Shown in pieces: positions 9,850 through 27,072 of a stretch of 53,882 nucleotides of DNA. Every line of letters begins with the position of its first letter. Position 1 is the first letter of the stretch. Made by a program: the position numbers and the translations under genes. The DNA comes from Actinomycetota bacterium (GTDB lineage Bacteria > Actinomycetota > AC-67). The notes under the pieces are model-generated. The model did not search any database. It worked only from the letters and a program-made list of their open reading frames with translations, and was not told the DNA's origin. The stretch covers positions 1 through 53,882 of the forward strand of contig JAIVGO010000012.1 of the NCBI GenBank assembly GCA_020201525.1, written 5' to 3'.

Positions 9850-9877
9850 TGTAAGACCCCCAGGAAGGCCCGCGAGG

Positions 9878-9904
9878 GCAGGGATGGGGGCCTCGGGCAG
9901 CGAA
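9878..9904 (+). promoter_or_regulatory. Sigma-H-like promoter of the repeat-protein/histidine kinase operon
   Basis: GCAGGGAT-N13-AGCGAA. Confidence 0.5.
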
Positions 9905-9994
9905 AGAGACCCCGAGCAATGGGGGTTGCGCGGGTACGGCACGTCGCAAGGCGCTTGCTGGTGCCGTGCCCGAGCCTGGCGACTGGTATTTGAG

Positions 9995-11527
9995 ATGAGT
10001 GGACTCACCGGATGGCGGCGTATCGCAACGCTCGTCTTCGCTTTGGCCCTCGTCTTCGGGGTGCTCGTAACGACGGTCCGAGTCGGCGCGAGGCTGCCGG
10101 CCACCGACTTCCTGAATCCCCATAGCCGGGTGGGAGGCGTTGATTACTCCGCGGATTCGGTCCGCGGCCTCGCACCGCTCCGGAGCGCGTTCATTCGAGA
10201 GGCCCTCGGAAGCGGAGCCTCGACGGCGCTCGCGGCCGCGCCCGACTCGAAAACGCCCACTCGAAACCAGCCGACAGTCAAAGGGCGGCGGATCGTTCAC
10301 ACTACGCCGGCGGGGCGCAACGACAGCTTTTCGAACGTGGAGAACGTTCAGACGATTCCCTTCACGGACAATACGAATACGTCTAACACCACCGTCGAAC
10401 CCGGTGAGCCTCAGGCGTGCGCACCCACCACCGGCACGGTGTGGTACCGGTTCGTTCCCTCGAAGAACGTTGGATTGTCGGCGAGCACCGAAGGAAGCAA
10501 CTTCGACACCGTACTGGCCGTCTACACGGGCACGAGCCTGAGCACACTCTCGTCGCTCGTCTGCAAGGACAGCGGAACGTTCGGGCGCCACTACGCGGTC
10601 GCGTTCCAAGCCCATGCCAGCCGGGCTCTCTATTTCCAGGTCGGCGGCGTCGGAGCCGCTCGCGGCGATCTCGTTTTCAATCTCGATCCCGCGCCCCGGC
10701 CTCCGAACGACAATTTCGCCGACGCGACTGGCTTGTCGAAAATCCCCGTCACCGATAGGACGAACACTGCAGGAGCCGGCGTCCAGCCCGGCGAGGCGCA
10801 GCCCACGTGCATCTCATCAACGGGCGCCACCGTCTGGTACCGATACACGCCTCGAACCGATGCTCCATTGGTCGCATCGACGTTCGGAAGCGACTTCGCG
10901 ACAACGCTCGGCGTGTACACCGGCGTGAAGATGACCGCGTTGCAAGAAGCTGCGTGCGATGCGAGCAACACGCCGGTCTACCCCGCGCGCGTCGTTTTCC
11001 GCCCCGTCGCCGGCCGCACGTATTCCTTTCTCGTCGGTGGAACGTTCGGAGACCGGGGCAATCTCGCGTTCACGCTTGCGGCGGCTCCCATTCATCCGCC
11101 GAACGATGATTTCGCGCACGCACGTGCGGCAGGAGTTCCTTTCGCGGACCGGCCCTCCACCTTCGGGGCGACCATTCAGACGGCCGAGCCACGACCGTCC
11201 TGCGCGACGGGTATCGCCGAGAGCGTGTGGTATCGCTTTACTCCCGGCGAAACGATGCAGCTCGTCGGCGACACGTTCGAAAGCCGTGCTGACACAGTCC
11301 TAGCGGTGTACACGGGAAGCGCATTGGGTGACCTGCAAGAAGTTCCGCTTGCCTGCAGCGACGACACCGCGATCTCGACGAGCAGCTCGGGTGGCACCGG
11401 CGTCAACAGTCAGGTATCGCAAGTGACCTTCACGGCCCTTGCCGGCGAGACGTATTTCTTCCAAGTCGGCCTCAAGAGCGACGCGCAAGGAAACATCGCG
11501 TTCAACTTGGACCGGGCTAGCACCTGA
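9995..11527 (+). CDS. Exported/membrane-anchored protein with three tandem PPC-like beta-sandwich repeats
   Basis: N-terminal TM/signal; three ~125-135 aa repeats ND.F...EP..C...VWYR(F/Y).P...T..S...T.L.VYTG...C...V.F....Y.F.VG. Confidence 0.8.
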   Translation: MSGLTGWRRIATLVFALALVFGVLVTTVRVGARLPATDFLNPHSRVGGVDYSADSVRGLAPLRSAFIREALGSGASTALAAAPDSKTPTRNQPTVKGRRIVHTTPAGRNDSFSNVENVQTIPFTDNTNTSNTTVEPGEPQACAPTTGTVWYRFVPSKNVGLSASTEGSNFDTVLAVYTGTSLSTLSSLVCKDSGTFGRHYAVAFQAHASRALYFQVGGVGAARGDLVFNLDPAPRPPNDNFADATGLSKIPVTDRTNTAGAGVQPGEAQPTCISSTGATVWYRYTPRTDAPLVASTFGSDFATTLGVYTGVKMTALQEAACDASNTPVYPARVVFRPVAGRTYSFLVGGTFGDRGNLAFTLAAAPIHPPNDDFAHARAAGVPFADRPSTFGATIQTAEPRPSCATGIAESVWYRFTPGETMQLVGDTFESRADTVLAVYTGSALGDLQEVPLACSDDTAISTSSSGGTGVNSQVSQVTFTALAGETYFFQVGLKSDAQGNIAFNLDRAST

Positions 11528-13464
11528 TGAGTGCTCGCCGCCGCCGAATCCTAACGTCGTTCCGCAATCTCCGTCTGTTCTGGAAATTGTTGCTTCCGTT
11601 CCTTGCACTCATGCTCCTCGTGGGAGCGTCGGGGGCGTTCTTCATCGTTCGTGACCTCTCGTCGCGCGCCAGGGGGGAGCTCAACCAGGACTTGCTGCGC
11701 CGCTCCGTCGATGTGGAGCTGCTCATTCGAGATCAGGAGCTGTATCTCGTCGAATCGGTTCGCTATGCGGCGAATCTTCAGAGGATGCCGGAAGCAGTGC
11801 GGGATCACGATGCTCCACAGGTGCGCGGGCTGTTGACCTCGGTGCTCGCGCTGCGGACTTCGCTCAACGCGCTGATCGTGACCGACGAAAAGGGGACGGG
11901 CCTCGTCGAAATAACGCGTTCGGACCCCCGAACGAAACAGCTCGGGGTCGGGAAAGGCGGATCGTGGTCCAAGAACCAGTTCGTCGGCGAAGTGCTAAAG
12001 GGAGTCATCGACAGTGCCGGTGACAAGCGTTCCGCGATCGTTCGGATCGGCGAACAAGCGATGCTCGCGACCGCAGGACCGATCCGGGCTCCGTCGGTGG
12101 TCGGTTCGGCAATCGTCGGAATCCGTCTCGATTCAATTGCGAAGGACGCGAGCGAAAGGCTGGGTGGCGCGAGCATCCGCTTTTTCGACGGTGACGGTTT
12201 GCTCGTCGCCTCCGCTGGGCGGATGATCTCCGCCGCGAGCCGGACCGGGCTTACCTCATCCCAGCCGGTGCGGACGACCGAGCACGTGGGAACCACCAAG
12301 GTTTCGACGATCTACATTGCCTTGCAGGCTCGCGGCGGGCGCGTCGGGACGGCGGCGATCAGTCTTCCGCAGGCCCCGGCGTTTGCTTCGGTCCGCGGCA
12401 CGGGGCTGCGGCTCATTCTCATTCTGGCCGGCGCGATGGCCCTAGCTGTTCTCGGCTTGGGTTTTCTTCTGTCCCGGTACATCCTCGCGCAAGTCCATCA
12501 TTTGGTGGAGACCAACCGCGCGCTCGGTCGCGGGGAGCTTTCGGCTCGCGCTCCGGTGCTCGGTGACGACGAGGTCGGCGAGCTGGCTGAGGGGTTCAAC
12601 CAGATGGCCGAGCAACTGGAGGCAAGTTATCAAGAGTTGGAGATGCGGGTGGAGCAACGAACGGAGGAATTGCAGCGGCTGAATCAGGAAGTGACGAAGG
12701 CCTCCGAAGCACGGTCCGAGTTCTTCGCGGCGATGAGCCATGAGTTCCGCACGCCGCTCTTTGCAATCAACGGTCACGCCGAGATGATGCTCGACCCCGA
12801 TTTCGTGCCCAAGGACCGCAGGCGTCTGTCGTCGTTCGATCAGACGATCCACGACTTCGCGTCGACCATCAAGAGCTCGGGCGAGCACTTGCTGGAGCTG
12901 GTCAACTCCATCTTGGATCTCGCCAAGTTCGAATCGGGGCGGATGAGCGTCGATCTCGAACCCGTGCAATTACCCGACCTCGTCAAGGAGATCCAGGGAC
13001 AGGTCGTTCCGCTCGCGCGGCGCGGAGACCTGAACGTCTCCTTTGACATCCCGAAAGGATTGCCGCTCGTAGCGGCCGACCCGACGCGTATTCGCGAGAT
13101 CTTGCTGAACCTGATGTCGAATGCGATCAAGTACACGCCGGCCGGGGGGCAGGTGCGTCTTGCCGCGTCCGCGAACAACGGTGTCGTGCAGGTCGCCGTC
13201 GCTGACACCGGCGTCGGGATTCCCGAGGATGCGCGAGAACGTGTCTTCGAGCCGTTCTACCAAGTCAAAGGAACCCGTGCGCAGCGCGGTCAGGCCTCGA
13301 GCGGGCTCGGGCTGGCGCTGACGAAACGTCTCGTCGAGGCGCACGGCGGAGAGATCTCGTTCGATAGCGAGGTCGGGGTCGGCACGACGTTCACGTTCAC
13401 GCTGCAGACGGCGGGCGCCGTGAAGCCTGCGCGAAAGAGAACAGCGCGAAAGCGCCCCGCCTAG
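11527..13464 (+). CDS. Membrane sensor histidine kinase (TM-extracellular sensor-TM-HAMP-HisKA-HATPase)
   Basis: DEVGELAEGFNQMA HAMP, SHEFRTPL H-box, NLMSNAIKY N-box, DTGVG, GLGL, GTTF. Confidence 0.95.
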   Translation: MSARRRRILTSFRNLRLFWKLLLPFLALMLLVGASGAFFIVRDLSSRARGELNQDLLRRSVDVELLIRDQELYLVESVRYAANLQRMPEAVRDHDAPQVRGLLTSVLALRTSLNALIVTDEKGTGLVEITRSDPRTKQLGVGKGGSWSKNQFVGEVLKGVIDSAGDKRSAIVRIGEQAMLATAGPIRAPSVVGSAIVGIRLDSIAKDASERLGGASIRFFDGDGLLVASAGRMISAASRTGLTSSQPVRTTEHVGTTKVSTIYIALQARGGRVGTAAISLPQAPAFASVRGTGLRLILILAGAMALAVLGLGFLLSRYILAQVHHLVETNRALGRGELSARAPVLGDDEVGELAEGFNQMAEQLEASYQELEMRVEQRTEELQRLNQEVTKASEARSEFFAAMSHEFRTPLFAINGHAEMMLDPDFVPKDRRRLSSFDQTIHDFASTIKSSGEHLLELVNSILDLAKFESGRMSVDLEPVQLPDLVKEIQGQVVPLARRGDLNVSFDIPKGLPLVAADPTRIREILLNLMSNAIKYTPAGGQVRLAASANNGVVQVAVADTGVGIPEDARERVFEPFYQVKGTRAQRGQASSGLGLALTKRLVEAHGGEISFDSEVGVGTTFTFTLQTAGAVKPARKRTARKRPA

Positions 13465-13859
13465 AAGGACGCGCAGAGATACGGGCCACCGGTGCCCGAC
13501 ACGTTGCAAACAACGGTCGAATTGACGGTGAGCGAAGTCGTTCCCGGCATCTGGCAGGCGGTGGCGCGCATGCCGGAATTGTGGCAGGTGTCTTCGGTGG
13601 TCGTCGTGTCACCGGACGTATGCGTAATCGACACGGTCACGCTCGCGGACGTCGGCGGGTTCGAGGTGGCGGCCCCGGCGACAAGCAGGTGCGTTCCGGC
13701 GATCTTGAACGTACACGTCGCGCCGGCGGGGGTTGCGTTGCCCTGGCAGGACGCCACGGGCTGGGCGGCAAGCCCCGGAACGGGGATCAGCGCCCACGCG
13801 AGAGCTGCTGTCGCTCCGAGCATCCCGCGGAAGCGGTTTGCTCTGCCGCCTGTCTTCAT
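13461..13859 (-). CDS. Small secreted 6-Cys protein (paralog A)
   Basis: Signal peptide; six Cys aligned with the neighbouring paralog. Confidence 0.72.
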   Translation of the reverse strand: MKTGGRANRFRGMLGATAALAWALIPVPGLAAQPVASCQGNATPAGATCTFKIAGTHLLVAGAATSNPPTSASVTVSITHTSGDTTTTEDTCHNSGMRATACQMPGTTSLTVNSTVVCNVSGTGGPYLCASF

Positions 13860-13892
13860 CGCGATTCCCGTTGGGCCGCCGTGGTGCAATAC

Positions 13893-14261
13893 CTAGGAGC
13901 TGACGCAGGCGTATTCACCAAATCCGCCGATGCTCGCGTTGCACGTCAATGCGGTTCCGACGGTGACGCTCAGCGGAAGGCTGTTCTGACAGGCAGTGAA
14001 TGCATTGCCGCTCGACGCGCAGTTCAAAGGCGGGCTGAGAGGAAGGCCGTTCTTGAGCACCGAGACCGCCACGCTCGCGGTGCCCGCGTTCGTTGCGGCG
14101 GCGAATATCGTGATCTTGGTCCCGGTGGCCGTGAACGGGCACGAGCCGGATGTACCCTGGCAAAGCTGCGCCGCTTCACCCTGACCCGGCACGAGCAACG
14201 CGACGAGACATACAGCGGCAAAAAAGATCACCATCCGCCGTGGCGCTTTCCGAGCCTTCAT
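13893..14261 (-). CDS. Small secreted 6-Cys protein (paralog B)
   Basis: Basic N-terminus plus hydrophobic signal ending GEA; six Cys in the mature part; promoter motif upstream. Confidence 0.75.
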   Translation of the reverse strand: MKARKAPRRMVIFFAAVCLVALLVPGQGEAAQLCQGTSGSCPFTATGTKITIFAAATNAGTASVAVSVLKNGLPLSPPLNCASSGNAFTACQNSLPLSVTVGTALTCNASIGGFGEYACVSS

Positions 14262-14304
14262 CTTTCCCCCTGTTCGCCCGAGCCCGGACTTTTCATCGTG
14301 AAGT

Positions 14305-14330
14305 TTCTACGCTGTCGACGCGATTCCTTC
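14305..14330 (-). promoter_or_regulatory. Sigma-H-like promoter of the 6-Cys protein pair
   Basis: GAAGGAAT-N12-GTAGAA on the minus strand. Confidence 0.65.
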
Positions 14331-14347
14331 ACCCGCATTTGCGGGTG
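14330..14347. promoter_or_regulatory. Palindrome CACCCGCA-TT-TGCGGGTG, putative regulator box
   Basis: Perfect 8-bp inverted repeat abutting the -35 element; core CCCGCA-N2-TGCGGG recurs at 22813. Confidence 0.5.
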
Positions 14348-14381
14348 TCCGGCGAAGAAATAGCATCAACCGGGGGGCGGC

Positions 14382-14407
14382 GCAGGATCGGTGCGTTTCG
14401 CGGCGAA
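14382..14407 (+). promoter_or_regulatory. Sigma-H-like promoter of the small HTH gene
   Basis: GCAGGATC-N12-GGCGAA, 11 nt before the ATG. Confidence 0.55.
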
Positions 14408-14418
14408 ATACCAGGGCA

Positions 14419-14721
14419 ATGCCGAAGAAACCGCAGACCTACCGGGCCGACGAGTCTCCCGGCGTCACCGGAACCGAGCTTTTCCGGCCGCCGCCGCCAC
14501 TCGAGCCGGCCGATCAGACGATCCTGGACGCCCTCTGCCGTCCCGTGTTGGACGGCGATGCTTTCACGCCGCCGGCCACGCCGGATGAGATCGCGGCCCA
14601 GGTCGGGCTGGCCGAGTCGGTCGTGACGAGCCGGCTCGAGCGCCTGTGTGGCGCCTTCGAGGTCGACGACGTGCCGAACCTCGCGATGGAGGCCATTCGC
14701 CGGGGCGCCGCACGTCCGTAG
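14419..14721 (+). CDS. Small HTH protein resembling the LuxR-like C-terminal domain of actinobacterial FHA-HTH regulators
   Basis: ILDALCRPVL....PPATPDEIAAQVGLAESVVTSRLERLCGAFEV pattern. Confidence 0.62.
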   Translation: MPKKPQTYRADESPGVTGTELFRPPPPLEPADQTILDALCRPVLDGDAFTPPATPDEIAAQVGLAESVVTSRLERLCGAFEVDDVPNLAMEAIRRGAARP

Positions 14722-14747
14722 CAGGAAAACGGCTCGATCCTGTCGAA
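14721..14747 (+). promoter_or_regulatory. Sigma-H-like promoter of the beta-propeller gene
   Basis: GCAGGAAA-N13-GTCGAA. Confidence 0.65.
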
Positions 14748-14785
14748 ACGGTTTCCGACAGCACGGGGATGCCGGGGGGACCGCC

Positions 14786-16255
14786 ATGATTGCCAGGATC
14801 AAGGCCGTACTACCGCTACTCGCACTCACACTCACACTCCTACCCATGCGCGCATCCGCCGCGCCGTGGGTCATCACCCGCGTACCGGTCGGCAACGACC
14901 CGCAAGGCATCGCCGTGATGGGAACGCGCGTCTTCGTGGCAAACGCACTCGACAACACGGTGTCGGTGTGGGATGAGCAGGCCGCCGCCGTCGTCGCGAC
15001 CGTCCGGGTCGGGCGTAAGCCGTCGGGGATCGCGGCCGATGCGGAAACGGGCCGGGTGTACGTCGCCAACATCGCCGATGCAAGCGTGTCGGTGATCGAC
15101 GGCGCCTCGTCCCCGCGCGTCCTTCAAACGATCAAGCTCCGCATGGAGAAGCCGGCCGCGGTCGCCGTCGATTCGTACCTGCGCCGCGTGTACGTCGCGC
15201 ATCCGACGAAGAACGCCGTTTCGGTGGTCGACGTATCCGGAGCGAAGCCGGCGCTGTCGACTCTCAAAGCCGGTTCCAAACCCGGCAGCCTTGCCGTCGT
15301 GGTGTCGGGATCGCCGGGCGTCCATCGTCTCGTCGTAACGAACACCGGGTCGAATACGGTCTCGATCGTCAATCTCACTTCTTCGGCCACTCGTGCGCCG
15401 GCGGGCGCCGGCAGCATCGGCGTGTGCAAGGCGCCGTCGGGCGCTGCCGTTGATCAAGCCGCGAACATTTTGTACATCGCGTGCAGCGACTCGAGCGTCC
15501 AAGCCGTCGACTTGGCGGCGCGGTCGGTCGTGCAAACGTACGCCGGCGCGACCGGACGCAGCATCGCCGTCGCGACGGCGCTCAAGAAAGCATTCATCGC
15601 CGATGCAACCGGCCTTCGCGTGATCGATCTCGCGTCGAAGAAAGTAATCGCCACCACGATCACGTCCCATCCGGTCGGCGTCGCCGTCGGTGCAGCCGGC
15701 GATCGCGTTTACGTCACCGAATACGAGAGCCGCGAGAAGGGCGGAGCGCTCCTCATCGTCGGCGACGATCTTGCGGCGCCCGCGTCGAAGATCTTGTCGA
15801 ACAGCCTGCAGCCGGTGCCGTCGCAAACGTTTCGCGTCGGTCCGGCGACGCTCACCGGCGAAGGTGTGGTGCCGCCGAACACCTTCCCCTTTGCCGGGCG
15901 CTCGACCGACGTGCTTTCCGGGGTCAAGAGCGTCGCGGTGACGTTCGTCGGCTCCGCCAACGGCGCGCGCTTTTCCTACGACGCGTCGGTGATCAACTGC
16001 GACGACGGCAACCACGAATGCACGTGGGTCGTCCATAAAGGGCCGCCGCCGCCCGGCGCGTACCGCGTCACCGCGCGCGCGACGGACGGAGCCGGCAACG
16101 TCGAATCGCCCGGCGCCTCCGCGACGGTGATCGTTGCCGCGGTTGCGACCCGAGCGAGCAATGCGGCCGGTGTCTGGGGCCTGCTCGGCGGGCTGGCGGC
16201 TGCCGGGATCGCCGGCGGCGTCCTTACGACTCGCCGCCGCCGCAGAGCGGCTTAA
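14786..16255 (+). CDS. Secreted YncE/YVTN beta-propeller with Ig-like domain and C-terminal TM-polyArg tail
   Basis: Signal ending ASA; repeated VG..P.GIA....RVYVAN....VSVID units; YRVTARATDGAGNVE Ig motif; tail WGLLGGLAAAGIAGGVLTTRRRRRAA. Confidence 0.88.
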   Translation: MIARIKAVLPLLALTLTLLPMRASAAPWVITRVPVGNDPQGIAVMGTRVFVANALDNTVSVWDEQAAAVVATVRVGRKPSGIAADAETGRVYVANIADASVSVIDGASSPRVLQTIKLRMEKPAAVAVDSYLRRVYVAHPTKNAVSVVDVSGAKPALSTLKAGSKPGSLAVVVSGSPGVHRLVVTNTGSNTVSIVNLTSSATRAPAGAGSIGVCKAPSGAAVDQAANILYIACSDSSVQAVDLAARSVVQTYAGATGRSIAVATALKKAFIADATGLRVIDLASKKVIATTITSHPVGVAVGAAGDRVYVTEYESREKGGALLIVGDDLAAPASKILSNSLQPVPSQTFRVGPATLTGEGVVPPNTFPFAGRSTDVLSGVKSVAVTFVGSANGARFSYDASVINCDDGNHECTWVVHKGPPPPGAYRVTARATDGAGNVESPGASATVIVAAVATRASNAAGVWGLLGGLAAAGIAGGVLTTRRRRRAA

Positions 16256-19200: not shown

Positions 19201-19680
19201 CGTGATCCGCGCGCCGGGGAACATCAGCAAGTACGCGCCGATCGCACCCGCGATTGCGCCGCTCGCTCCGAGCACCGGCGCAGTCGACGTCTTGTTCAGG
19301 AAGACGTACGCCATCGTGGCGCCGACCCCCGAGAGCAGATAGAAGGCGACGAACCTCACGCGCCCGAGACGGTCTTCGACGTTCTTTCCGAACAGCCACA
19401 GCATGTACATGTTTCCGGCGATGTGCACCGCGCCGACGTGGAGAAACAGCGCGCTGAAGATCGAGCGCCAGATTTCCCAGCCACTGCACGACGCAGTGGG
19501 GTGCAAAATCTGAAATGTGCCGCAATCAACGACGCGTTGCGGCGTAGCGAAGATCGCAGAGAAGTCGCGGCTGAGGAGGAGCGGGACCGCAATCAAGAAT
19601 AGGGCCACGTTCATCCCGATGATGAAGATCGTGGCGGCCGGCGTGCGGCGCGACTCGGCGGTGTCTCGAATGGGAATCAT
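16252..19680 (-). CDS. Rhomboid intramembrane serine protease fused to a P-loop (STAND/AAA-like) NTPase and TPR array
   Basis: MIPIRD rhomboid N-terminus, FLHVGAVHIAGNM, GASGA, AHIGG; Walker A GDGGNGKS (18706-18729); Walker B VVLFFDGHE; ~8-9 TPRs (YDxAL...PD....NN.G..L). Confidence 0.88.
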   Translation of the reverse strand: MIPIRDTAESRRTPAATIFIIGMNVALFLIAVPLLLSRDFSAIFATPQRVVDCGTFQILHPTASCSGWEIWRSIFSALFLHVGAVHIAGNMYMLWLFGKNVEDRLGRVRFVAFYLLSGVGATMAYVFLNKTSTAPVLGASGAIAGAIGAYLLMFPGARITTLSVSFGGRRELRKMMHEGPAGAAKSRLVSIAAVDIPAWILAAFYFVLQLSQNYLRVAHEGPSPAVAYEAHIGGFLAGMVALLLLAPREVHPSVRALFSGRPLRTTPAEVPEEKPRAGSAATGWRALELFTDRAEPIRRFTKTLENETPAEKVIFFHGDGGNGKSLLLRHLAERCTPVPHALLDLAAAPRGDDRPQEAFSALLMLRRALAGRAFPLFDFACVHYLHATGASSPERLKSLFPDEERNFIASVADVVAEQHWVAESALEMITRRLGTSLDEYAKRRKIDPATIEAIERLDPATELIDELPALFARDLNASMSPGDRVVLFFDGHEAFWAGARFVSDHLFFERDEWLRRLLVNVDLAAGIVCVVAGREPPRWDKAPVAKIGRDRIELHRLDFLPLPDATSFLEAAGISDEATRRHILAIARVGDQIHPLYLGLCADVVANSRDGGGLGEVQQTDAFAEKAEQLVARLLRYVDDEVGFAVRALAAARWFDRDVYVALGEALNFKATDPSFAALLNFSFVWRTDRTGTFRVHDLLRRLAREREDDVLSRADAALERFHRARAKDGDIGSVVEAVYHASMSDPPRGAAEWLSAFTNGLARNRLELCRALLVLRKELPAGDMESARMARASADFSARLARYDEARGEYDAAISSYDRALASAQSDAEALRGKGDALRRLGELEAKLSRYPGALSAYDAAADAYRQALKAAPDDPRALRSQSNVQRAHGELLATMQRPDEAIAAYRAAISSAETVVRSSPADVRAANALGVTLRSIADLYAATGRPREARAGYKKGLAALDAALIHGPDDVEVLNNKGMTLRGTGDLDAAAGRTEPARKGYAAAAEVYERALKLSPDYVYAHNNLGSTLRALGTLHAAAAQHEAALERFGEALAAHDEALRIAPDYIYAHNNRGAVLSLRAESLVATGRKGDAAAALREALSAYDAALAIAPDYRNAQSNKAAAQKALTSLTKRPAKSKR

Positions 19681-19690
19681 CCTTCCTGCT

Positions 19691-19716
19691 TTCGCCGTCG
19701 CCGGGCCCAACCCTGC
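19691..19716 (-). promoter_or_regulatory. Sigma-H-like promoter of the rhomboid fusion
   Basis: GCAGGGTT-N12-GGCGAA on the minus strand, 10 nt before the ATG. Confidence 0.5.
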
Positions 19717-19786
19717 CGCCCCCGGAAACCTTCTGAAGGCCCTTTGCTAAAGTCGCCTGAACTATCTGGGGAGACGCGAACGGGGC

Positions 19787-21268
19787 ATGGGCAAGCTCAT
19801 TCGGAAGCGATACGAGACGCTCGAGGTCGCCGGTCGCGGCGGCCAGGGAGAGGTCCTGTTCGCGATCGACCACCAGCACGACCGCAAGGTCGCCCTGAAG
19901 GTTCGCGCGGTCCCCAACGCCGAACAGCGTGCCGCCCTTCTCGAAGAAGCCCGCATTTTGCTGTCGCTCGAGCCGCATCCCGGGCTCCCGCTCGTGCGCG
20001 AAGACTTCTTCGTCGGCAACCACTACTACATGGTGATGGATTGGGTCGAGGGCAAGAACCTGCAAGAGGTCCTCGACGAGCGCGGCGACCCCGGCCTCCC
20101 GGCGTCGACGGTGCTCAAGTACGTCGGCGAAGTCGCGAAGGCGCTCGACCATTTGCATGCGCACGAGCCGGCGATCGTGCACCAAGACGTGAAGCCGGCG
20201 AACATCGTTCTGTCCAAAGGGCGCCGGCCGATCCTCGTGGACTTCGGCATCGCAGTGACGGGCGGCGAGGCAACGTCGGCGCGCGGCACCCGCGGGTATC
20301 AAGCTCCCGAGCTCTCTCGCGGCGAAGCGCCGACGCCGGCAGCGGACGTCTACGGCCTGGCGGCGACCACGTTCGCGCTCCTCACCGGGTCGCCGCCGGC
20401 AGGCGTGCGGCCGACGTGGGAGGGAATCCCCAAGGCGGCTGTGCCGACGCTCGAGCGAGCCCTGCGTCGCGGCTTGTCGAATGATCCGGATCGCAGGCCG
20501 GGCTCTGCGGGGGAGCTCATCGAGGTTTTGCGCGCGTGGCTCGACTCACGTACCGATGAGGGCCCCGGCGCTCCGCCGCGACCGGTCGTCGCGGAGCCTT
20601 TGCCGGAAGCACCGGTGAACAAAGACGCGATCCGGCTCATGCTCGTCGACGATCATCCGATGTGGCGGCAAACGTTGAAGACCGTTCTCGAACACGATCA
20701 ATTTGCGACCGTGATCGCGGAAGCGTCCGACGGCGACGAGGCCATCGAAAAAGCCCGCGTCTCCTCGCCCGACGTCATCATCATGGACATGAACCTCCCG
20801 ACGATGAACGGCGTCGAAGCGACGCGCGGCATTCTTTCCGGATGCAGCCAAGCGAAGATTCTTGTCTTGTCTGCCAGCGGCGCGCAGCCCGACGTGCTCG
20901 AAGCAATCAAGTCCGGCGCGTCGGGGTACTTGCTGAAGAGCGCCGCGGCCGACGAGGTTGCCGACGCCGTCCGCCGCGTGAAGCGCGGAGAGCCGGTCTT
21001 TACGCCGTCGCTCGCCGGTCTCGTCATGGGCGAGTTCCGGCGCCTAGCTTCGGGGCCGCGCGACGATAGCGAGCTCACGCCCGACGAAAACGACGTTCTG
21101 AGCCTCATATCCAAAGGCCGCAAGTATCACGAGATTGCCGACGAGCTCGACGTGCCGGTGAACATGGTGCAGTCACATGCTCGCAGCATTCACGCGAAGC
21201 TCCAGAAGCGGCCTTCGCAACCGCACGCACCGAAGGCGAAGCAAAAGACGGTGAGGAAGAAGAAATGA
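19787..21268 (+). CDS. Ser/Thr protein kinase - receiver - LuxR HTH fusion
   Basis: GRGGQGEV, VALK, HQDVKPANI, DFG, YQAPE, DVYG; REC with LVDD, MDMNLP, VLSAS, YLLK; LTPDENDVL...YHEIADEL HTH. Confidence 0.9.
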   Translation: MGKLIRKRYETLEVAGRGGQGEVLFAIDHQHDRKVALKVRAVPNAEQRAALLEEARILLSLEPHPGLPLVREDFFVGNHYYMVMDWVEGKNLQEVLDERGDPGLPASTVLKYVGEVAKALDHLHAHEPAIVHQDVKPANIVLSKGRRPILVDFGIAVTGGEATSARGTRGYQAPELSRGEAPTPAADVYGLAATTFALLTGSPPAGVRPTWEGIPKAAVPTLERALRRGLSNDPDRRPGSAGELIEVLRAWLDSRTDEGPGAPPRPVVAEPLPEAPVNKDAIRLMLVDDHPMWRQTLKTVLEHDQFATVIAEASDGDEAIEKARVSSPDVIIMDMNLPTMNGVEATRGILSGCSQAKILVLSASGAQPDVLEAIKSGASGYLLKSAAADEVADAVRRVKRGEPVFTPSLAGLVMGEFRRLASGPRDDSELTPDENDVLSLISKGRKYHEIADELDVPVNMVQSHARSIHAKLQKRPSQPHAPKAKQKTVRKKK

Positions 21269-21837
21269 CGCGGCGTCCGGACCCCGCGGAAACGGTTCGC
21301 ACCGTCCTTCACGAGTTGCGCAGCCGCGTCGGCGCCATCCGGCTCGCCGTGACGACGCTGCAGACGAACACGTCCGACGAAGAGCTGATGAAATCGCTTC
21401 TGGCAACGGCGGATCGCGAAACGCTCCGCGTGTCCATGGAAATGGTCGCCGTCACCGCGCTCGTCACGTGCCTCACCGACCGGAGTGCGCCGCGGTCGTT
21501 CGACATCGGTCATGCGCTTCGCAATGCGGTGACGCTGACGGAGCGCGTGGGCGGGCGCGCCACACTGGGGCGCGGAAGCAAAGCGATAGTCCGTGCGCGG
21601 CCGCGCGGCTTCGAAAGCGCGTTGTCGTCGCTCATGCAGCTGGTCGCCGACGTCGACGGTGAGACGATCGTGTCCGTCTCGACGAAAAACGGGGCCGTCA
21701 CCGTGAAGCTTGCCCGGCCCGACGGAAGTCACGCTCCTGGAGGATCGCTCGTCAAGAACCTTCTTGCCGGCATCGGCGCGACGCAGATCCCCTCCGACGC
21801 CGGGCTCGTCTTCCGGCTGGAAGGAGTGTCGCCATGA
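21265..21837 (+). CDS. Degenerate histidine-kinase-fold protein (possible histidine phosphotransferase)
   Basis: H-box LHELRSRVGAI retained; the C-terminal part follows HATPase layout but lacks the N-box Asn, DxGxG and GLGL; ATGA overlaps on both sides. Confidence 0.65.
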   Translation: MTRRPDPAETVRTVLHELRSRVGAIRLAVTTLQTNTSDEELMKSLLATADRETLRVSMEMVAVTALVTCLTDRSAPRSFDIGHALRNAVTLTERVGGRATLGRGSKAIVRARPRGFESALSSLMQLVADVDGETIVSVSTKNGAVTVKLARPDGSHAPGGSLVKNLLAGIGATQIPSDAGLVFRLEGVSP

Positions 21838-22472
21838 CGATCGGCGTCTTGCTCGTCGACGACCACACGGTCTTTGCCGAGACGCTCGCGGCTGCGCTCA
21901 AGACGAATGCCGACATAGCGATTCTCGGCGTCGCGAATACATCGACGGACGGTCTCGAAAAAGCGACGGCACTGAAGCCGGACGTCGCGCTGCTCGACGT
22001 GATGCTGCCGGACTACGACGGCATCGAGCTTGCGCGTCGGGTGCGGACGGCGTCGCCGGAAACGAAAGTCGTCATGCTGACCGGGGAAACCGATCCCGCA
22101 CTGTTCGCAAAGGCCATGGCGGCAGGCGCGTGCGGGTACCTCATCAAGGAATCGAGCCTCGGTGACGTCACCGACGCGGTCCGGCGAGCGTACGCCGGCC
22201 AGGTCGTCGTCCCCGACAAAGCCGTGAGTCGTCTGACGCAAGCGCAAGCGCCGCCCAAAGGCGTCGGATCGGATCTCACCGACCGTGAGCTCGAGGTGCT
22301 TGGCTTGCTCGCGCAAGGCAAAGATGCGAAGACGATCGCGAAGAGCCTCGGGATCACGTGGCACACGGCTCGGTCGTACTTGAAGACGGTTCTTATGAAG
22401 CTCGACGCGCACAGTCAGCTCGAAGCGGTGGCGGTCGCGACGCGACTCGGCATCATCGGGAGGCCCAAGTAG
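21834..22472 (+). CDS. NarL/LuxR-family response regulator
   Basis: LVDDH, LLDVMLP, MLTG, YLIK; LTDRELEVL...IAKSLGI...KLDAHSQLEAVA. Confidence 0.95.
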   Translation: MTIGVLLVDDHTVFAETLAAALKTNADIAILGVANTSTDGLEKATALKPDVALLDVMLPDYDGIELARRVRTASPETKVVMLTGETDPALFAKAMAAGACGYLIKESSLGDVTDAVRRAYAGQVVVPDKAVSRLTQAQAPPKGVGSDLTDRELEVLGLLAQGKDAKTIAKSLGITWHTARSYLKTVLMKLDAHSQLEAVAVATRLGIIGRPK

Positions 22473-22810
22473 TGGGAGTTCTTGTCGTCGAAGATTCCGA
22501 GGCGATCGGGAAGATGCTCGTCCAGGTGCTCGAGCGAGCCGGGTTCGAAGCTAAGTGGACGGACAATGTCGAAGATGCCTTGTCCACCGCGGCGGAATGG
22601 ATTCCCGACGTTGTGCTCCTCGATCTTCACCTCGGCGATGCGCCGGGCATCGAAGTCGCCAAGAAGCTTCGCAAGAGCGCCGCTACCAGCAAGGTTCGTG
22701 TTATCGGCCTCTCGGGTGACCCGCCGGCGAAAGCCGAGCAGAAGCACCTCGACGGCTTTCTGCTGAAGCCCGTCGCGCTGGCCGCAGTCGTCGAAGCAGT
22801 CCGAGGTTAG
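22472..22810 (+). CDS. Single-domain response regulator (CheY/Spo0F-like)
   Basis: GTG start overlapping the upstream TAG; VVED, LLDLHL, GLSG, LLKP. Confidence 0.88.
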   Translation: MGVLVVEDSEAIGKMLVQVLERAGFEAKWTDNVEDALSTAAEWIPDVVLLDLHLGDAPGIEVAKKLRKSAATSKVRVIGLSGDPPAKAEQKHLDGFLLKPVALAAVVEAVRG

Positions 22811-22811
22811 A

Positions 22812-22849
22812 CCCCGCAGATGCGGGGGTAGGCAGCCCGCAACATGGGG
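22812..22849. promoter_or_regulatory. Tandem CCCGCA-N2-TGCGGG boxes upstream of the second single-domain regulator
   Basis: CCCCGCA-GA-TGCGGGG (22812-22827) and degenerate CCCGCA-AC-ATGGGG (22836-22849). Confidence 0.45.
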
Positions 22850-22878
22850 TATTCCACCGCGGGTACAGGCCCGACAAT

Positions 22879-23247
22879 GTGTCCATGAGCATTCGAGTCA
22901 TGATCGTGGACGACGACCCGACGGTTCGCGTGACGCTGGCGCGCTTTTTTGCGCTCCATAAGGATCTCAAGGTCGTCGGCGAAGCCACGAACGGTCGCGA
23001 CGGCGTCGAGCTTGCGCAACGCGTGAAGGCCGACGTCATCGTCATGGATGCCCGTATGCCCGAGATGAACGGGCTCGAGGCGACGGAGCAAATTCGGTCG
23101 CTCGGCATCAACACCCCGGTGCTGATCTTCAGTGCCGAGGACGGGGTCGCCGGCAAGATCAACGGCCTCGCGAAAGTTGGTTTTCTCACGAAGCACGGGT
23201 CGGGGCCGCGCGAAACCATCGCCGCGATCCGCGAACTCGCGTCCTAA
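22879..23247 (+). CDS. Single-domain response regulator
   Basis: IVDDD, VMDARMP, IFSAE, FLTK. Confidence 0.9.
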   Translation: MSMSIRVMIVDDDPTVRVTLARFFALHKDLKVVGEATNGRDGVELAQRVKADVIVMDARMPEMNGLEATEQIRSLGINTPVLIFSAEDGVAGKINGLAKVGFLTKHGSGPRETIAAIRELAS

Positions 23248-23269
23248 CTCCCTACACCCGCTCAACCCT

Positions 23270-23293
23270 GCGCGAAGGCATCCGCCTTCGCGC
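23270..23293. terminator. Hairpin between convergent genes
   Basis: GCGCGAAGGC-ATCC-GCCTTCGCGC, 10-bp stem. Confidence 0.6.
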
Positions 23294-23300
23294 GCCCGTT

Positions 23301-26300
23301 TTACGGACGCGCCCAACGGCGCCGGCGACGCTGCGTGAGAATCGCTGCGGCGATCGTGGCTGCGATGAGACCGAGGATGAGCAGAAGCCGGTTCGGCGGC
23401 GCGGCGATCGTAATGCTTTCACCTGCCGGCTCGGCAAGTGGATAGTACTCGCCGATCTCGACGGCGCCGGCCTTCTTTGCCGTCGCAGGCTGCGAAACCG
23501 TTTCCGTGCCCGGGGCGACAAACTTGATGCCGAAGCTCAGCGTTTCGTTCTCGGCGATACCCGCTTTCGACAAGCCGGCGCCGCGGATGGAGATCTGCCG
23601 CCAGAACTTTCCGCGTCCCGACGTGACGCAGTGCGTCGCTTTGGTCACGTCGACGGTTTCCGGGATGAACGTAAAGCTGTGCCCGAAGAAACCTTCTTCG
23701 TGCTGACCGAAGACGGGATAGTGCGCCGGCGGCGGGTTTTGAATCATTTGCTGATCGTAAAACGTCTCGGAGACACCGAGCGCCGCGCCGACGCTTCGCG
23801 GTGACCCGCACGTTGCATCGGTGCCGCACGCGTACGTGTCGGTCATGACGGCACGTTGTGTCGGAACGTGCGCCATCATGACCCAGTCTTCACAGAGTTG
23901 GGGTCCGCTTCGCCCGTCCGCGATCTTTTCGGTCGGCGTCGGAACGCTGCGGCATCCGTCTGCGTACGCGTCCTTGCGGTAATTCGGCACGGCGACCACC
24001 GACGCGTTGCTTCCGCCCACTGCTCCGCTCCAGCGCCACGCCACCCAGGTATCGAGCGCGAAAGCGATGTCACGGACTTGAATCTGCGCCGGGAGGGTCG
24101 CGTCTGCTCCACCTTTCGGAATGAACGACAAGCGGACGACACAGCGGCAACTTTGGTTCTGAGTGATGCGCGTGAAGTCGAAGTGCGCCTTCTTGTCGCT
24201 CCCGACGTTGAACGCGATGTTCGATCCCGATGGAACGTTGCCCTTGATCAGGGATTGGATCGTCGTGCCGTTCACAACGACCGTCCCGTTGGCGGTGACG
24301 AGGCCGGCGATCTTGTCGGGCCCGCTCCCGCCGATCACCTCGACGAGCATTAACGCGTTCTTCAGCGCGTACGAGAAGTCGAGCGACAGGTGATACCGGT
24401 AGTTCGGCGAGACGAGCCGGAACGGATATTCAAGGACGAGGAACGGCGACTTGCCGGGAAGCGCACCGGCAAACGTCGCCGAGAAGGGCGCCGACAGCGC
24501 GGCCTTCTTCTCGGCGTCGGTCTTCGGCGCCGTCGCCGGATCGCAACTCTCACGGTTGATCGTCCAGGCGCTCGTGTGCGGAAAGGTCGATCCCGGCGCG
24601 TACGACGCAAGGACATCTGGATCGCTGTTGAACAAATCCCTGCATTTGACGAGGTCGATGGAACGCGACGAGACGGCCGGACCCGGAGACTTCTCGACGT
24701 TGCCGAATACGTAGCGGATGTTTTCGGTGAGAAACCGTCCCTTGTATGTGCCGGTCGAAGCGTCGTAATTCGCCGAGCTGAAACCCGGCGCGCAGTCCGG
24801 CCGCTTCACCTTTGGACACAGAGTGTCCGGAAGAACCAACGCGTCTTGCCCGAGCGACTGATAGATCATGCGATCGCCGAGGTCGACCTCGGTCGTCGTC
24901 TCGGTGGCTTCGGTGGTTCCCACGGCTTGACCCGGGACGACGCGCGTCGGCGCGCCGTAATCGGAGAACAGCCGTATGTCGTAGAACCCTGGAAGGACGA
25001 ACTTGAAGTTGGCGTTGCCGGCTTTGTCGGTCATCAAGAAGTACAGCTCCAGAGACTGCTGGGACGGAATCATCGCGATCCAGTGTTCGAACGCCGAGCC
25101 GATCGGCACGGTCGGCACCAAGCCGAAAGTCAGCGCATCTGCGTCGCTCCCGCCGAGATACGTGGCATGCGCCGTGAGGCTCATTCCCTTGATCCAGCAG
25201 ACCGGTGTCGGCACGGATGTCGCGCCGAAGTGCACGGCGAGGAAACCGCAGAAATACCCTTCGGAGTCGGTCGCCGCCGGCGACACATGGATGTGAATGC
25301 ATCCGTTGTGGTCGTGGTGATGTCCGCCGGTGGGAGGCGGCTGAACGGCTCCCTCGGGGTGCGTCGCGCAGGCAGCGATATGCGGCACCGCTTCGGCGGC
25401 GATTCCCTGCACCTGTTCGACTGTGGGGCCGTCGATTCCGATCGTTGCAACGTCGGTGACTTCGAGCGTCACCAGTTGATCCGGCGTTCCGTTTTGGATG
25501 CGGATCATCGCCGCCGATGTGCCGTTTGCGGCATCGACGGCGGTGTCGCCGTGGTCGAGGACGAGGGGGCGTGTCGGATCGGCCGAGGCGTCGTACAAGC
25601 TGTCTGGATACGAACGCAGGTCACCGGCGCCTTGCTGCCAGACCGGCACGCCCGGCAAGCGTTCGGCCGTTGTGTTGAATGCGCCTCGGATCGACGTCGG
25701 GTCGATGCCCTTGGCGTGCAACGCGGCCGCTTGAACGGCGACGACCGCGGCTGAGGGCAGCGTGGACGCAAGCGATGCGCGTGCCGCGTCCGGCGGCGTT
25801 TCGAGCGTGTCCTTCCACAGGGGCTTCAGCGCCGCGTTCAACAAGCCGGCGTCGCCCAAGGCCTTGCCGAGCAGTGAATTCGAGGGCAGTAGCCCGACGA
25901 CGCCGGACGGCGCCACGATGTCCGGCTTCACGCGAAGCGCCTTGAATCCGTTCGTGTTCTGCGGTGCCGGATCGGTCCAACCTTCGTTCTTCACGTCGAA
26001 GGCTGGGCCGCGCGCGCTCTGCGCCGGCACCGTCGCGCCGTCCGACGCTCCGACGGTGAGGACTTGCGGAAGGTTCGCGATGCCGAAGATCGTCTGCAAG
26101 TCCTCGGGCTTCATGCCCTGGTTGACGTCGCCGGCGGGAACGACGATCGGAATCCCGCGTGCATCGAGCAAGTTGATCTTCGTGAGGAGGATGCTCCACA
26201 CAGAGCTCAGATCCTGGTACTCCTTGGCGCCTGCTGCAGACACCGTAGGAATGTTTCCGATGAAGCTCGTGCTGCCGCCACCGAGAGCCACGCCGAACAT

Positions 26301-26936
26301 GTGGCCGCCTTTGACCGGGGTTGGTGGCCGGCCCTCCGACGCATTGACGATCCCGTCCCACTGCTTGCGCACCATCATCGCGAAGATCGGATCGAGCAGC
26401 TCACTCGGCGGCATGCCGAACAAGACTGCGTCGACCGCACCGTCCTTTGCCATTGCCGCCGCCGTGTCGAACGCGCCGCGAATTGCGTACGAGCTGACCA
26501 GTCCGGTCGCGTCGTATCCGCTCAGCGATGTGATGTGGGCATGCGGTACCAGCTGAAGAACGATCGACGCGAGAAAGGATCCGTATCCGATCGGGTCGGT
26601 CGTGTCTTGGCTCGTGATGCCTTTGACGAGCGGGCGCAAAGGTTCCGGCAAGACGCTCGTCGCGATTCCCGACGAGATGAGTACGATGTTCGGATCGTCC
26701 TTCGGCGGACGAAGTGCATCGATCGAGGCCAGCGGCTTCGCGCGCTTGTTTGCTACGAAGTCTCCCGGACACCCGGCGAGGCGACCCGGGTCCGACGTCT
26801 GTGGGCAGGCGAGTGCGCCGCGAAGCACCGGTCGCTGCGGTACCTCGAGCGGATGGGCCGCCGCCGGCGCCGCAGCAGCGGTTGCGAGAACGGCGACGAC
26901 GAAGCGAACGATGAGCCTCTTGGAAGAAACACGCAT
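23301..26936 (-). CDS. Large secreted subtilase (S8)-fold protein with substituted catalytic triad and C-terminal TM-polyArg tail
   Basis: Signal MRVSSKR...AAAH; S8 landmarks IVLISSGI, DPIGYGSFLA, VVPAGD, VLTVGASD, SARGP, KPDIVAP, QGAG; tail LLLILGLIAATIAAAILTQRRRRRW. Confidence 0.8.
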   Translation of the reverse strand: MRVSSKRLIVRFVVAVLATAAAAPAAAHPLEVPQRPVLRGALACPQTSDPGRLAGCPGDFVANKRAKPLASIDALRPPKDDPNIVLISSGIATSVLPEPLRPLVKGITSQDTTDPIGYGSFLASIVLQLVPHAHITSLSGYDATGLVSSYAIRGAFDTAAAMAKDGAVDAVLFGMPPSELLDPIFAMMVRKQWDGIVNASEGRPPTPVKGGHMFGVALGGGSTSFIGNIPTVSAAGAKEYQDLSSVWSILLTKINLLDARGIPIVVPAGDVNQGMKPEDLQTIFGIANLPQVLTVGASDGATVPAQSARGPAFDVKNEGWTDPAPQNTNGFKALRVKPDIVAPSGVVGLLPSNSLLGKALGDAGLLNAALKPLWKDTLETPPDAARASLASTLPSAAVVAVQAAALHAKGIDPTSIRGAFNTTAERLPGVPVWQQGAGDLRSYPDSLYDASADPTRPLVLDHGDTAVDAANGTSAAMIRIQNGTPDQLVTLEVTDVATIGIDGPTVEQVQGIAAEAVPHIAACATHPEGAVQPPPTGGHHHDHNGCIHIHVSPAATDSEGYFCGFLAVHFGATSVPTPVCWIKGMSLTAHATYLGGSDADALTFGLVPTVPIGSAFEHWIAMIPSQQSLELYFLMTDKAGNANFKFVLPGFYDIRLFSDYGAPTRVVPGQAVGTTEATETTTEVDLGDRMIYQSLGQDALVLPDTLCPKVKRPDCAPGFSSANYDASTGTYKGRFLTENIRYVFGNVEKSPGPAVSSRSIDLVKCRDLFNSDPDVLASYAPGSTFPHTSAWTINRESCDPATAPKTDAEKKAALSAPFSATFAGALPGKSPFLVLEYPFRLVSPNYRYHLSLDFSYALKNALMLVEVIGGSGPDKIAGLVTANGTVVVNGTTIQSLIKGNVPSGSNIAFNVGSDKKAHFDFTRITQNQSCRCVVRLSFIPKGGADATLPAQIQVRDIAFALDTWVAWRWSGAVGGSNASVVAVPNYRKDAYADGCRSVPTPTEKIADGRSGPQLCEDWVMMAHVPTQRAVMTDTYACGTDATCGSPRSVGAALGVSETFYDQQMIQNPPPAHYPVFGQHEEGFFGHSFTFIPETVDVTKATHCVTSGRGKFWRQISIRGAGLSKAGIAENETLSFGIKFVAPGTETVSQPATAKKAGAVEIGEYYPLAEPAGESITIAAPPNRLLLILGLIAATIAAAILTQRRRRRWARP

Positions 26937-26998
26937 GCCCACGACCCCCTGGCGTCGGTTCCTTGCTGCATCCCGCCGCGGCAGCTTTGCTCTTGAGG

Positions 26999-27024
26999 TT
27001 CGCGCCGGGGGCTCGTTTTCCTTC
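26999..27024 (-). promoter_or_regulatory. Sigma-H-like promoter of the pseudo-subtilase
   Basis: GAAGGAAA-N12-CGCGAA on the minus strand. Confidence 0.55.
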
Positions 27025-27072
27025 CGCGACTCTGCTTGACCGCATTTTCGGGCGCGGAGTGCGCCCGGACGG

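Follow-up and report, generated by a model that had tools for sequence, protein, structure and literature searches.

The 53,882-nucleotide stretch of DNA analysed here (the window) is contig C59 (JAIVGO010000012.1) of a 3.7-Mb, 209-contig, 95% complete assembly of an Actinomycetota bacterium, and has a GC content of ~64%. Between positions 9995 and 26936 it carries a block of 13 genes, G1 to G13, which a first-pass annotation had described as a candidate multicomponent system for envelope signalling and the shedding of surface proteins. Frame analysis by GC content at third codon positions (GC3), together with the open reading frame (ORF) listing, shows that these 13 coding regions are real and their coordinates good, and both flanks are, as had been said, catabolic genes: an amidohydrolase on the left (8589-9809, reverse strand) and an acyl-CoA dehydrogenase on the right (27073-28218, reverse strand). 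In our proposed reading, to which we give a probability of about one half, a multi-step His-Asp phosphorelay that also takes input from a Ser/Thr kinase is the core of a lineage-specific island, and a STAND-gated rhomboid protease and tail-anchored surface proteins are linked to it.

Reading from the left, G1 (9995-11527, forward strand, as are all genes below unless marked otherwise) encodes an N-terminally anchored surface protein with three PPC-like repeats, and G2 (11527-13464) a membrane sensor histidine kinase with two transmembrane (TM) segments, an extracytoplasmic domain, HAMP, HisKA and HATPase_c. Two small secreted six-cysteine proteins, G3 (13461-13859) and its paralogue G4 (13893-14261), lie on the reverse strand and are followed by G5 (14419-14721), a 100-residue protein with a LuxR/GerE-like helix-turn-helix (HTH) only, and G6 (14786-16255), a secreted YVTN/NHL beta-propeller with an Ig-like domain, a C-terminal TM helix and an RRRRR tail. 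G7 (16252-19680, reverse strand) joins a rhomboid protease (residues 1 to ~290), a STAND NTPase (~291-800) and a TPR array (~800-1152). Divergent from it is G8 (19787-21268), a Ser/Thr kinase-receiver-LuxR/GerE HTH fusion; then come G9 (21265-21837), a 190-residue protein with a DHp and a degenerate CA domain, G10 (21834-22472), a NarL/LuxR-type response regulator, and the single-domain receivers G11 (22472-22810, GTG start) and G12 (22879-23247). The last gene, G13 (23301-26936, reverse strand), specifies a secreted protein of 1211 residues, with an N-terminal dead subtilase-like domain, ~700 unassigned residues and a C-terminal TM helix followed by RRRRR. The domain identities first assigned mostly stand as claimed, with refinement for G9, the NTPase of G7 and G13.

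Stop and start codons overlap as TGATG (G1/G2), ATGA (G8/G9 and G9/G10) and TAGTG (G10/G11); G2 is translationally coupled to G1, and the receivers form a tightly overlapping operon, G8-G9-G10-G11, then G12. In the convergent pairs G6/G7 (16252-16255) and G2/G3 (13461-13464) the stop codons overlap, by 4 nt each, which leaves no space for terminators between the partners. Four of the 13 proteins (G1, G3, G9 and G13) match no Pfam family at E<=0.01. A generic repeat scan of the block found nothing above chance, and there was one promoter-like site (1.4 expected) and 19 terminator-like sites (16.4 expected).

Comparison of the flanks supports the view that the block is a separate unit, inserted between two genes that lie next to each other in related genomes. 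Orthologues of the amidohydrolase (63-68% identity) are found in 11 of 20 same-family genomes (E<=1e-60), and in seven of these 11 (G016, G015, G020, G018, G003, G019 and G012) the contig also carries an acyl-CoA dehydrogenase orthologue (59-72% identity), in the same orientation and at a distance of 610-3408 bp; the corresponding distance here is 17,263 bp, and it is this difference that identifies the inserted island (9850-27072). Five of the relatives' gaps were examined: none contains more than one or two ORFs, which are unrelated, and the block proteins have no homologue there. Direct repeats longer than 9 bp are absent from the island borders, and the composition of the island shows no shift relative to its flanks. 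Just outside, upstream of the amidohydrolase gene, a 21-bp element (9829-9849) holds the hairpin CCTGAC-AATCGC-GTCAGG; as this element is kept in the gaps of G015 (100% identical) and G016 (95%), it is part of the flank rather than of the island, and is probably an operator of the catabolic genes.

At the left end of the island, G1 contains three repeats of ~130 residues, 36-44% identical (E 2e-22 to 5e-31), with a weak match to PPC below the cut-off (E 0.012) and a TM segment at residues 6-24. These repeats, and the overlap with G2, bear out the earlier description of a repeat surface protein coupled to a HAMP kinase. Pfam finds HisKA (E 1.5e-15), HATPase_c (E 2.9e-30) and HAMP (E 1.4e-13) in G2, and its translation shows SHEFRTPL, NAIKY, DTGVGI and GLGLAL, such that the H-box and the N and G boxes of a sensor histidine kinase are all present. 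The sensor domain of G2 is matched in 13 of 20 same-family genomes, at up to seven copies per genome, and we fetched ten of the relatives' loci (from G007, G003, G002, G011, G013 and G005), covering 11 of the 34 non-self matches. G1-like repeat genes adjoin the G2-type kinase in seven of the ten, and receivers that best match the receiver of G8 (44-57%), G12 (42-55%) or G10 lie within ~3 kb of the kinase in eight; the loci without a partner include three short ones that end at a contig edge near the kinase. A PPC-repeat surface protein, a HAMP kinase and NarL-type or single-domain receivers thus form a common multi-copy cassette of the family, and it is this kinase cassette that is ancestral and has been elaborated in the island. 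The cassette is multiplied in the relatives' loci L163-L172, with the same maximum of seven kinase copies per genome, and L168 has three G1-like genes in a row. The present genome has a single copy of this G2-type sensor, along with G1-like repeats on contigs C128, C97 and C208.

The receiver operon supplies the remaining parts of a relay. Pfam gives the architecture Pkinase-Response_reg-GerE for G8, Response_reg-GerE for G10 and Response_reg for both G11 and G12, with Response_reg E-values of 4e-26, 1.4e-23, 1.8e-17 and 8.2e-22, respectively, which upholds the kinase-REC-LuxR fusion, LuxR regulator and two single-domain receivers of the first-pass annotation. In their translations all four receivers retain the DD/ED pair, the phospho-acceptor D and the S and K positions; catalytic or phospho-acceptor motifs are intact in G2, G8 and the four receivers. 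G8 itself is a receiver-LuxR regulator to which an N-terminal Ser/Thr kinase has been added. Its orthologue P0115 is 77% identical and seven further fusions are 47-60% identical, the source-given names of the homologues pointing to Actinomycetota; 400 genomes sampled across the phylum gave no full-length fusion, only separate kinase or REC-GerE matches, and no description of a kinase-receiver-LuxR fusion was found among search results and the openings of abstracts. (This 400-genome tally, and that of 40 relatives used below, include G021, G037, G342, G269, G335 and G065, which are flagged as unpublished; no positive claim rests on those.) Ser/Thr kinase paralogues are encoded on contigs C5 and C128 of the same genome.

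The protein between the kinase fusion and the response regulator, G9, had been called a ‘pseudo-kinase’; this is correct insofar as it has a histidine kinase fold without conserved ATP-binding boxes, but we consider a phosphotransferase candidate to be the more useful reading. An exhaustive search returned a family of 46 representatives at E<=0.001, almost all of them stand-alone proteins of 170-210 residues, and an alignment of 35 members has His16 as its sole invariant column, with no conserved Asn, DxGxG or GxGxG. The AlphaFold2 model (predicted local distance difference test, pLDDT, 95) consists of two long helices in a hairpin, then an alpha/beta domain, and Foldseek matches it to the DHp-CA cores of histidine kinases and to ChpT (4fpp, 4fmt, 4qpj), at E 4e-8 to 1e-5. 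In size (~200 residues), in its sensorless DHp plus CA-like fold and in the loss of the boxes, G9 agrees with the ChpT/Spo0B type; by sequence it belongs to neither family, with no Pfam or NCBIfam match at E<=0.01 and HisKA appearing only at E 0.029. On the strength of the model, G9 is a candidate ChpT/Spo0B-like histidine phosphotransferase. No match to it was found in 20 same-family genomes, and a hidden Markov model of the G9 family found no member in the relatives' ten cassettes and only weak matches to histidine kinase cores elsewhere in its own genome. The single genuine kinase G2, the four receivers with their intact motifs and G9 together make up the parts list of a multi-step phosphorelay, and these predictions support the view that the island holds a real multi-component His-Asp relay together with a Ser/Thr kinase.

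G7, on the other side of the divergent promoter region, was annotated as a rhomboid-NTPase-TPR protein, a description that we can confirm and refine. Translation probably starts from the ATG at 19680, which corresponds to residue 11 of a TTG-initiated ORF from 19710 and is the point at which homologues begin. Pfam Rhomboid (PF01694) matches at E 2.1e-28 (99.8 bits against a cut-off of 22.6), placing G7 within the family, and TPR families match at E 1e-14 to 1e-19. Among 5.8 billion clustered proteins the full architecture occurs three times, namely in G7, P0003 (62% identical) and P0004 (56%), and in all three fusions the rhomboid catalytic residues (G148-A-S150-G, H96..N100 and H241 of AHIGG) and the Walker A motif GDGGNGKS are invariant; alignments A1 and A4 show little or no variation in GDGGNGKS and in the Walker B motif (V/L)LFFDGHE. 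The model of residues 291-800 (pLDDT 85) is matched by Foldseek to CED-4 (E 1.3e-6), MalT, Apaf-1, NLRs, Avs3 and 6mfv, over a range of 1e-6 to 1e-3, from which the NTPase is predicted to be a STAND module of the CED-4/MalT/NLR-like kind. Pfam offers no NACHT, NB-ARC, nSTAND or AAA_16 family for G7 at E<=0.01, and PF13191 or PF20703 are seen only on the distant homologues P0042, P0078 and P0081. Some 50 homologues of the NTPase-TPR part have no rhomboid domain, many of them with cyanobacterial source names.

The full-length fusion was not found in 40 relatives or in the 400 phylum genomes, and pattern scans of metagenome and genome contigs for G7 relatives gave ordinary rhomboids or partial NTPase-TPR matches only. 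Search results and abstract openings likewise yielded no description of a rhomboid-STAND fusion. Against the rhombosortase model TIGR03902, G7 scores 31.8 bits, below the cut-off of 84, and PADLOC has no family for G7, G13, G1, G6, G9, G4 or G5, with generic Ser/Thr-kinase models alone matching G8. A stand-alone rhomboid on contig C166 (3727-4545) is 41% identical to the rhomboid part of G7, and as the matches in relatives' genomes are orthologues of the C166 protein, the G7 domain looks like a duplicate of the housekeeping rhomboid. Between rhomboid TM helices, at residues ~173-210 (window ~19080-19190), G7 carries the insert SVSFGGRRELRKMM.EGPAGA.KSRL.SIAAVDIPAW, nearly identical across the three fusions.

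G13, at the right end of the island, had been described as a TM-tailed dead subtilase, and so it proves, with the S8 homology emerging at the level of profiles. A single-sequence search gives Peptidase_S8 at E 0.02, below the Pfam cut-off, whereas profile A2, which combines G13 with the C15 paralogue and three of the relatives' homologues, matches subtilisins of the PDB at E 7e-10. Set against KP-43 and SubHal, GHGTH has become GYGT (His to Tyr) and AAGN has become PAGD (oxyanion Asn to Asp), the catalytic Ser of GTSMA aligns to L, I, V or F in the family, and the Asp box, on inspection, reads SSG. These replacements of triad and oxyanion residues are common to all five family members, and G13 is accordingly classed, by alignment, as a subtilase homologue with replaced catalytic residues. 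Residues 1177-1200 (IAAPPNRLLLILGLIAATIAAAIL) are invariant at 24 of 24 positions in G13, P0237 and P0236, proteins that are otherwise 57-58% identical; such invariance is unusual for a passive anchor and fits specific intramembrane recognition, without amounting to proof of cleavage.

G6 and G13 both end in a TM helix and then RRRRR, with a GG before the helix in G6; they are two of the genome's nine ORFs whose products terminate in a TM helix and at least four consecutive Arg/Lys. No NCBIfam sorting-signal or GlyGly-CTERM model matched either protein at E<=0.01. A sortase-type signal was considered for both and rejected: LPXTG-like motifs, present in two other tails of the genome (LPSTG and LPATG, on contigs C11 and C176), occur in neither. 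A complex prediction pairing the G7 rhomboid (residues 11-300) with the G13 tail (residues 1150-1211) scored 0.00 in a run whose controls failed to fold. Two members of the G13 family are tail-less (C15:15546-18935, that is L020:1063-4452, and L025:3-2966) and have as their extreme C-termini ...ICDLV and ...ICDLF, which may be a C-terminal signal with a Cys. Some 1.5 kb from the C15 paralogue is a gene for a 750-residue protein that has Ig domains and a C-terminal part similar to that of G6.

G3 and G4 are indeed the pair of secreted six-Cys paralogues that had been annotated (35% identity, E 4e-10), each made with a signal peptide and retaining six Cys when mature. G3 matches no Pfam or NCBIfam family; a below-cut-off match of G4 to HCMV_UL116 was taken as spurious, and the 400 phylum genomes contain only two marginal matches to G4, one of them in G269. 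A role for the pair as subtilisin inhibitors that bind the dead subtilase was considered, and no match supports it. The HTH claimed for G5 is visible as similarity, but its matches stay below Pfam cut-offs; the closest relative, at 39% identity, is the HTH segment of an FHA-GerE protein encoded on contig C128. The gene for that protein stands directly upstream of one encoding a 1082-residue Ser/Thr kinase-class III cyclase-nSTAND1-WD40 protein (C128:19347-23170, L129:9548-13371), the kinase domain of which is 54% identical to that of G8; at L129:16672-19899 a cyclase-AAA_16-TPR-SBP_bac_5 protein runs off the contig end. The annotation of G6 as a TM-tailed beta-propeller also holds, with the YVTN repeat model (beta_rpt_yvtn, NCBIfam) scoring 66 bits against a cut-off of 27.85 and Pfam finding a propeller of NHL/YncE type; relatives gave only partial domain matches.

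Two of the intergenic regions share a palindrome, CCCGCA-NN-TGCGGG, which occurs exactly twice in the window, both times between genes of the block. The first copy (14332-14345, CCCGCATTTGCGGG) sits midway in the divergent G4/G5 promoter region, where a flanking A and T extend it to a 7-2-7 inverted repeat, and the second (22813-22826, CCCGCAGATGCGGG) begins three bases past the G11 stop and lies 53 bp before G12; with flanks, the consensus is [A/C]CCCGCA-NN-TGCGGG[T/G]. The whole genome contains four exact copies with the 2-nt spacer, and seven when spacers of 0-6 nt are allowed. Inverted heptamers in a 7-2-7 arrangement are the operator pattern of NarL-type regulators, and by this analogy G10, G8 or G5 are candidate binders. 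One near-identical copy (CACCCGCATTTGCGGG) is found at C58:22976 (L132:5977), where it directly follows an arginase-family gene and precedes, by ~400 bp, a gene pair for an extracytoplasmic function (ECF) sigma factor and a DUF5667 protein.

Evidence that some of these genes travel together comes from metagenomes. Orthologues of G7 (P0003, 62% identical), G8 (P0115, 77%), G9 (P0238, 64%) and G13 (P0237, 57%) each list a longest JGI contig of 41,065 bp, a figure thus shared by all four block proteins that were tested, from which we infer that the four orthologues reside on one metagenome contig. In addition, a Logan contig of 21,436 bp is given for two other proteins, P0245, of the G9 family, and P0032, a STAND-TPR homologue of G7 with no rhomboid; ten further members of the G9 family produced no further coincidence of contigs. 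Conservation of gene neighbourhood, on which the idea of a system had been staked, is seen for G2-type kinases with G1-type proteins and receivers, and G7, G8, G9 and G13 appear to co-occur on one other contig, whilst the comparisons made did not find the whole 13-gene set elsewhere.

Synthesising these observations, we suggest the following scheme. Phosphorylated G2 would pass its phosphoryl group to a single-domain receiver, G11 or G12, which in turn would hand it to His16 of G9 and thence to the LuxR-type outputs G10 and/or G8, with the kinase domain of G8 adding a second, Ser/Thr-based input or a feedback. The outputs probably act on the 7-2-7 palindromes, that is at the divergent G4/G5 promoter and ahead of G12. 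As orthologues of G7, G8, G9 and G13 seem to occur together in at least one other organism, G7 and G13 may be placed functionally with the relay. The most likely activity of G7, whose rhomboid looks active, would be to cut a membrane protein with a single TM span, within the membrane and under the control of a ligand or nucleotide; G13, with its invariant TM tail, and G6 would be the best candidate substrates. We also entertain, as a proposal with the odds clearly against it, a fuller version in which G7 acts as a membrane-embedded, NLR-like ‘switch’: the TPR array senses a cytoplasmic ligand or a phosphorylation state that the neighbouring Ser/Thr kinase and His-Asp relay have set, NTP-dependent oligomerisation of the STAND module activates the rhomboid, and the TM tails of G13 and G6 are cut to release their ectodomains. 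Search results and abstract openings contained no description of such STAND-gated intramembrane proteolysis for either family.

Several observations weigh against a phosphorelay island with linked protease and tail-anchored proteins. G9 could serve as a phosphatase or an inhibitor rather than as a phosphotransferase. The placing of G7, G8, G9 and G13 on a single contig is drawn solely from equal lengths, with gene order and distances unread, and nothing places orthologues of G1-G6 there; searches of relatives found no orthologue of G3, G4, G5 or G6, and comparison gives these four genes no link to the relay. Homologues of G3-G7, G9 and G13 are lacking from all ten of the relatives' cassettes, so the elaborated parts could be independent additions, and where G13 homologues occur in genomes G013 and G011, the other 12 genes are all missing from the locus. 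Of the three intergenic regions first credited with a palindromic box, two have it exactly, but the third copy, upstream of G13 (27039-27052, ACCGCATTTTCGGG), has two mismatches and is no better than chance, the window containing eight sites at that stringency against 6.9 expected. The palindrome is not conserved in the ten cassettes (122 kb), where three one-mismatch sites were seen, none clearly intergenic, and its second copy might instead be an RNA hairpin after G11. A promoter motif said to be common to six genes was not recovered: when the 120 nt preceding each of the 13 genes were compared, no 6-9-mer (with up to one mismatch) was shared beyond shuffled sequences, the best 8-mer being found at seven genes against a shuffled mean of 7.1 and a maximum of 9. 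A gapped or degenerate motif would escape such a comparison, and the earlier note stated no motif.

How much unity to grant the block depends on how these points are set against each other. One could hold that all 13 genes form one circuit, in which signalling controls the rhomboid shedding of G1, G6 and G13, with G3 and G4 as ligands or co-factors. The whole set does lie within one sharp-bordered insertion, its 17 kb encode five proteins that are secreted or at the surface, two sensors in the membrane and six signalling proteins of the cytoplasm, two of the genome's nine tails with a TM helix and an Arg cluster are here, one of them invariant, and a palindrome connects the G4/G5 promoter with the receiver operon. 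The discrete island, the relay and the Ser/Thr kinase are the parts of the first-pass ‘integrated circuit’ that stand; a link of G3-G6 beyond position and one palindrome does not, and comparative support for these four genes and the common promoter motif are both wanting. G1 is anchored at its N-terminus and hence is not a type-I tail-anchored substrate, the one hint of rhomboid cleavage is the TM tail of G13, and G7 falls short of the rhombosortase model with no GlyGly-CTERM match on either putative substrate. We regard a circuit of this extent as unlikely, treat both the idea that all 13 genes belong together and the proposed shedding as hypotheses, and take support for a 13-gene ‘system’ to be partial.

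At the other extreme, the block might be a mosaic assembled at an insertion hot spot from at least three independent units (G1-G2 with the receivers; G7; G13; G3-G6) with no joint function. The genome is rich in scattered paralogues of the kind this would call for (G1-like on C128, C97 and C208; G13 and G6-like on C15; Ser/Thr kinases on C5 and C128), the direction of transcription changes six times in 17 kb, homologues of G13 elsewhere stand alone, and the composition of the relatives' cassettes and the absence of flanking direct repeats and of a compositional difference from the flanks fit as well. That four proteins from three transcription units (G7; G8-G9; G13) apparently share one other contig, at 57-77% identity, argues the other way, as does the manner in which a single orphan kinase and a kinase-less receiver operon complement each other, and a pure mosaic, although a possibility to be taken seriously, seems to us doubtful. 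A conflict or defence module is harder still to sustain. Here G7 would be an NLR/Avs-like sensor with a rhomboid effector that damages the membrane proteome, its neighbours being bystanders or regulators; the fold matches to Avs3, NLR resistosomes and CED-4, the ~50 rhomboid-less homologues with their many cyanobacterial names and the island location all lend it some colour, and PMC7159879 deals with conflict systems of the STAND-TPR kind in multicellular prokaryotes. The word ‘rhomboid’ occurs 0 times in that source, PADLOC recognises nothing among the eight proteins named above beyond a generic kinase, and conserved proximity to a two-component operon is more in keeping with signalling, such that we consider this explanation very improbable. 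Between these positions, a phosphorelay island to which G7 and G13 are functionally tied, with G3-G6 less securely placed, remains the reading that we prefer.

If the parts do work together, three chemistries (His-Asp phosphorylation, Ser/Thr phosphorylation and intramembrane proteolysis) would be wired into one envelope sensor. To our knowledge, the regulation and substrates of bacterial rhomboids are largely unknown, and fusion of a rhomboid to a STAND/NLR-like ATPase suggests a testable answer to the question of how such proteases may be switched on. The G9 family, with its 46 representative clusters, would be a new ChpT-like family outside Alphaproteobacteria and Firmicutes, and the G8 fusion physically unites two signalling systems that are usually studied as cross-talk.

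Several of the components have counterparts in known systems. The relays CckA-ChpT-CtrA/CpdR of Caulobacter and KinA-Spo0F-Spo0B-Spo0A of Bacillus are made of the same parts, namely a kinase, single-domain receivers, a dimerisation and His-phosphotransfer protein of ~190-200 residues whose CA-like domain is degenerate, and a DNA-binding output, and PMC3433190 describes ChpT as resembling histidine kinases. The present set differs in that G9 has no detectable sequence family in common with ChpT or Spo0B, G2 is not a hybrid kinase, one of the outputs (G8) bears a Ser/Thr kinase domain, and phosphotransfer is predicted here from the genes. The palindromes resemble NarL operators in being two inverted heptamers with a 2-bp gap, near an operon for NarL/LuxR-type regulators; they are putative sites, with two exact copies in the block and a heptamer sequence that is unrelated.

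The mycosins of type VII secretion are subtilases with a C-terminal membrane anchor, and in G13 too a C-terminal TM helix tethers a secreted domain of subtilase fold to the membrane, but with His, Ser and the oxyanion Asn replaced, ~700 extra residues and no ESX genes in its context. Rhombosortase and GlyGly-CTERM sorting, as outlined for Vibrio and Shewanella in PMC3237569 and PMC6219818, likewise pair a rhomboid with proteins of the genome that carry a tripartite tail of short motif, TM helix and basic cluster, to which the GG-TM-RRRRR end of G6 and the strictly conserved tail of G13 may be compared. G7 departs from that system in its 860 extra cytoplasmic residues (STAND and TPR) and its score below the model cut-off, and the source names point to Actinomycetota rather than Proteobacteria, with only two candidate substrates nearby. 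Finally, amongst STAND-TPR proteins (MalT, Avs, Apaf-1/CED-4, plant NLRs and 6mfv), G7 differs from the others in matching no Pfam STAND family and in having as its effector a polytopic intramembrane protease, which would make it membrane-embedded; it has in common with them the Walker A and B motifs, a helical and winged-helix region and a TPR array, and appears to follow the same logic of an N-terminal effector governed by a C-terminal sensor.

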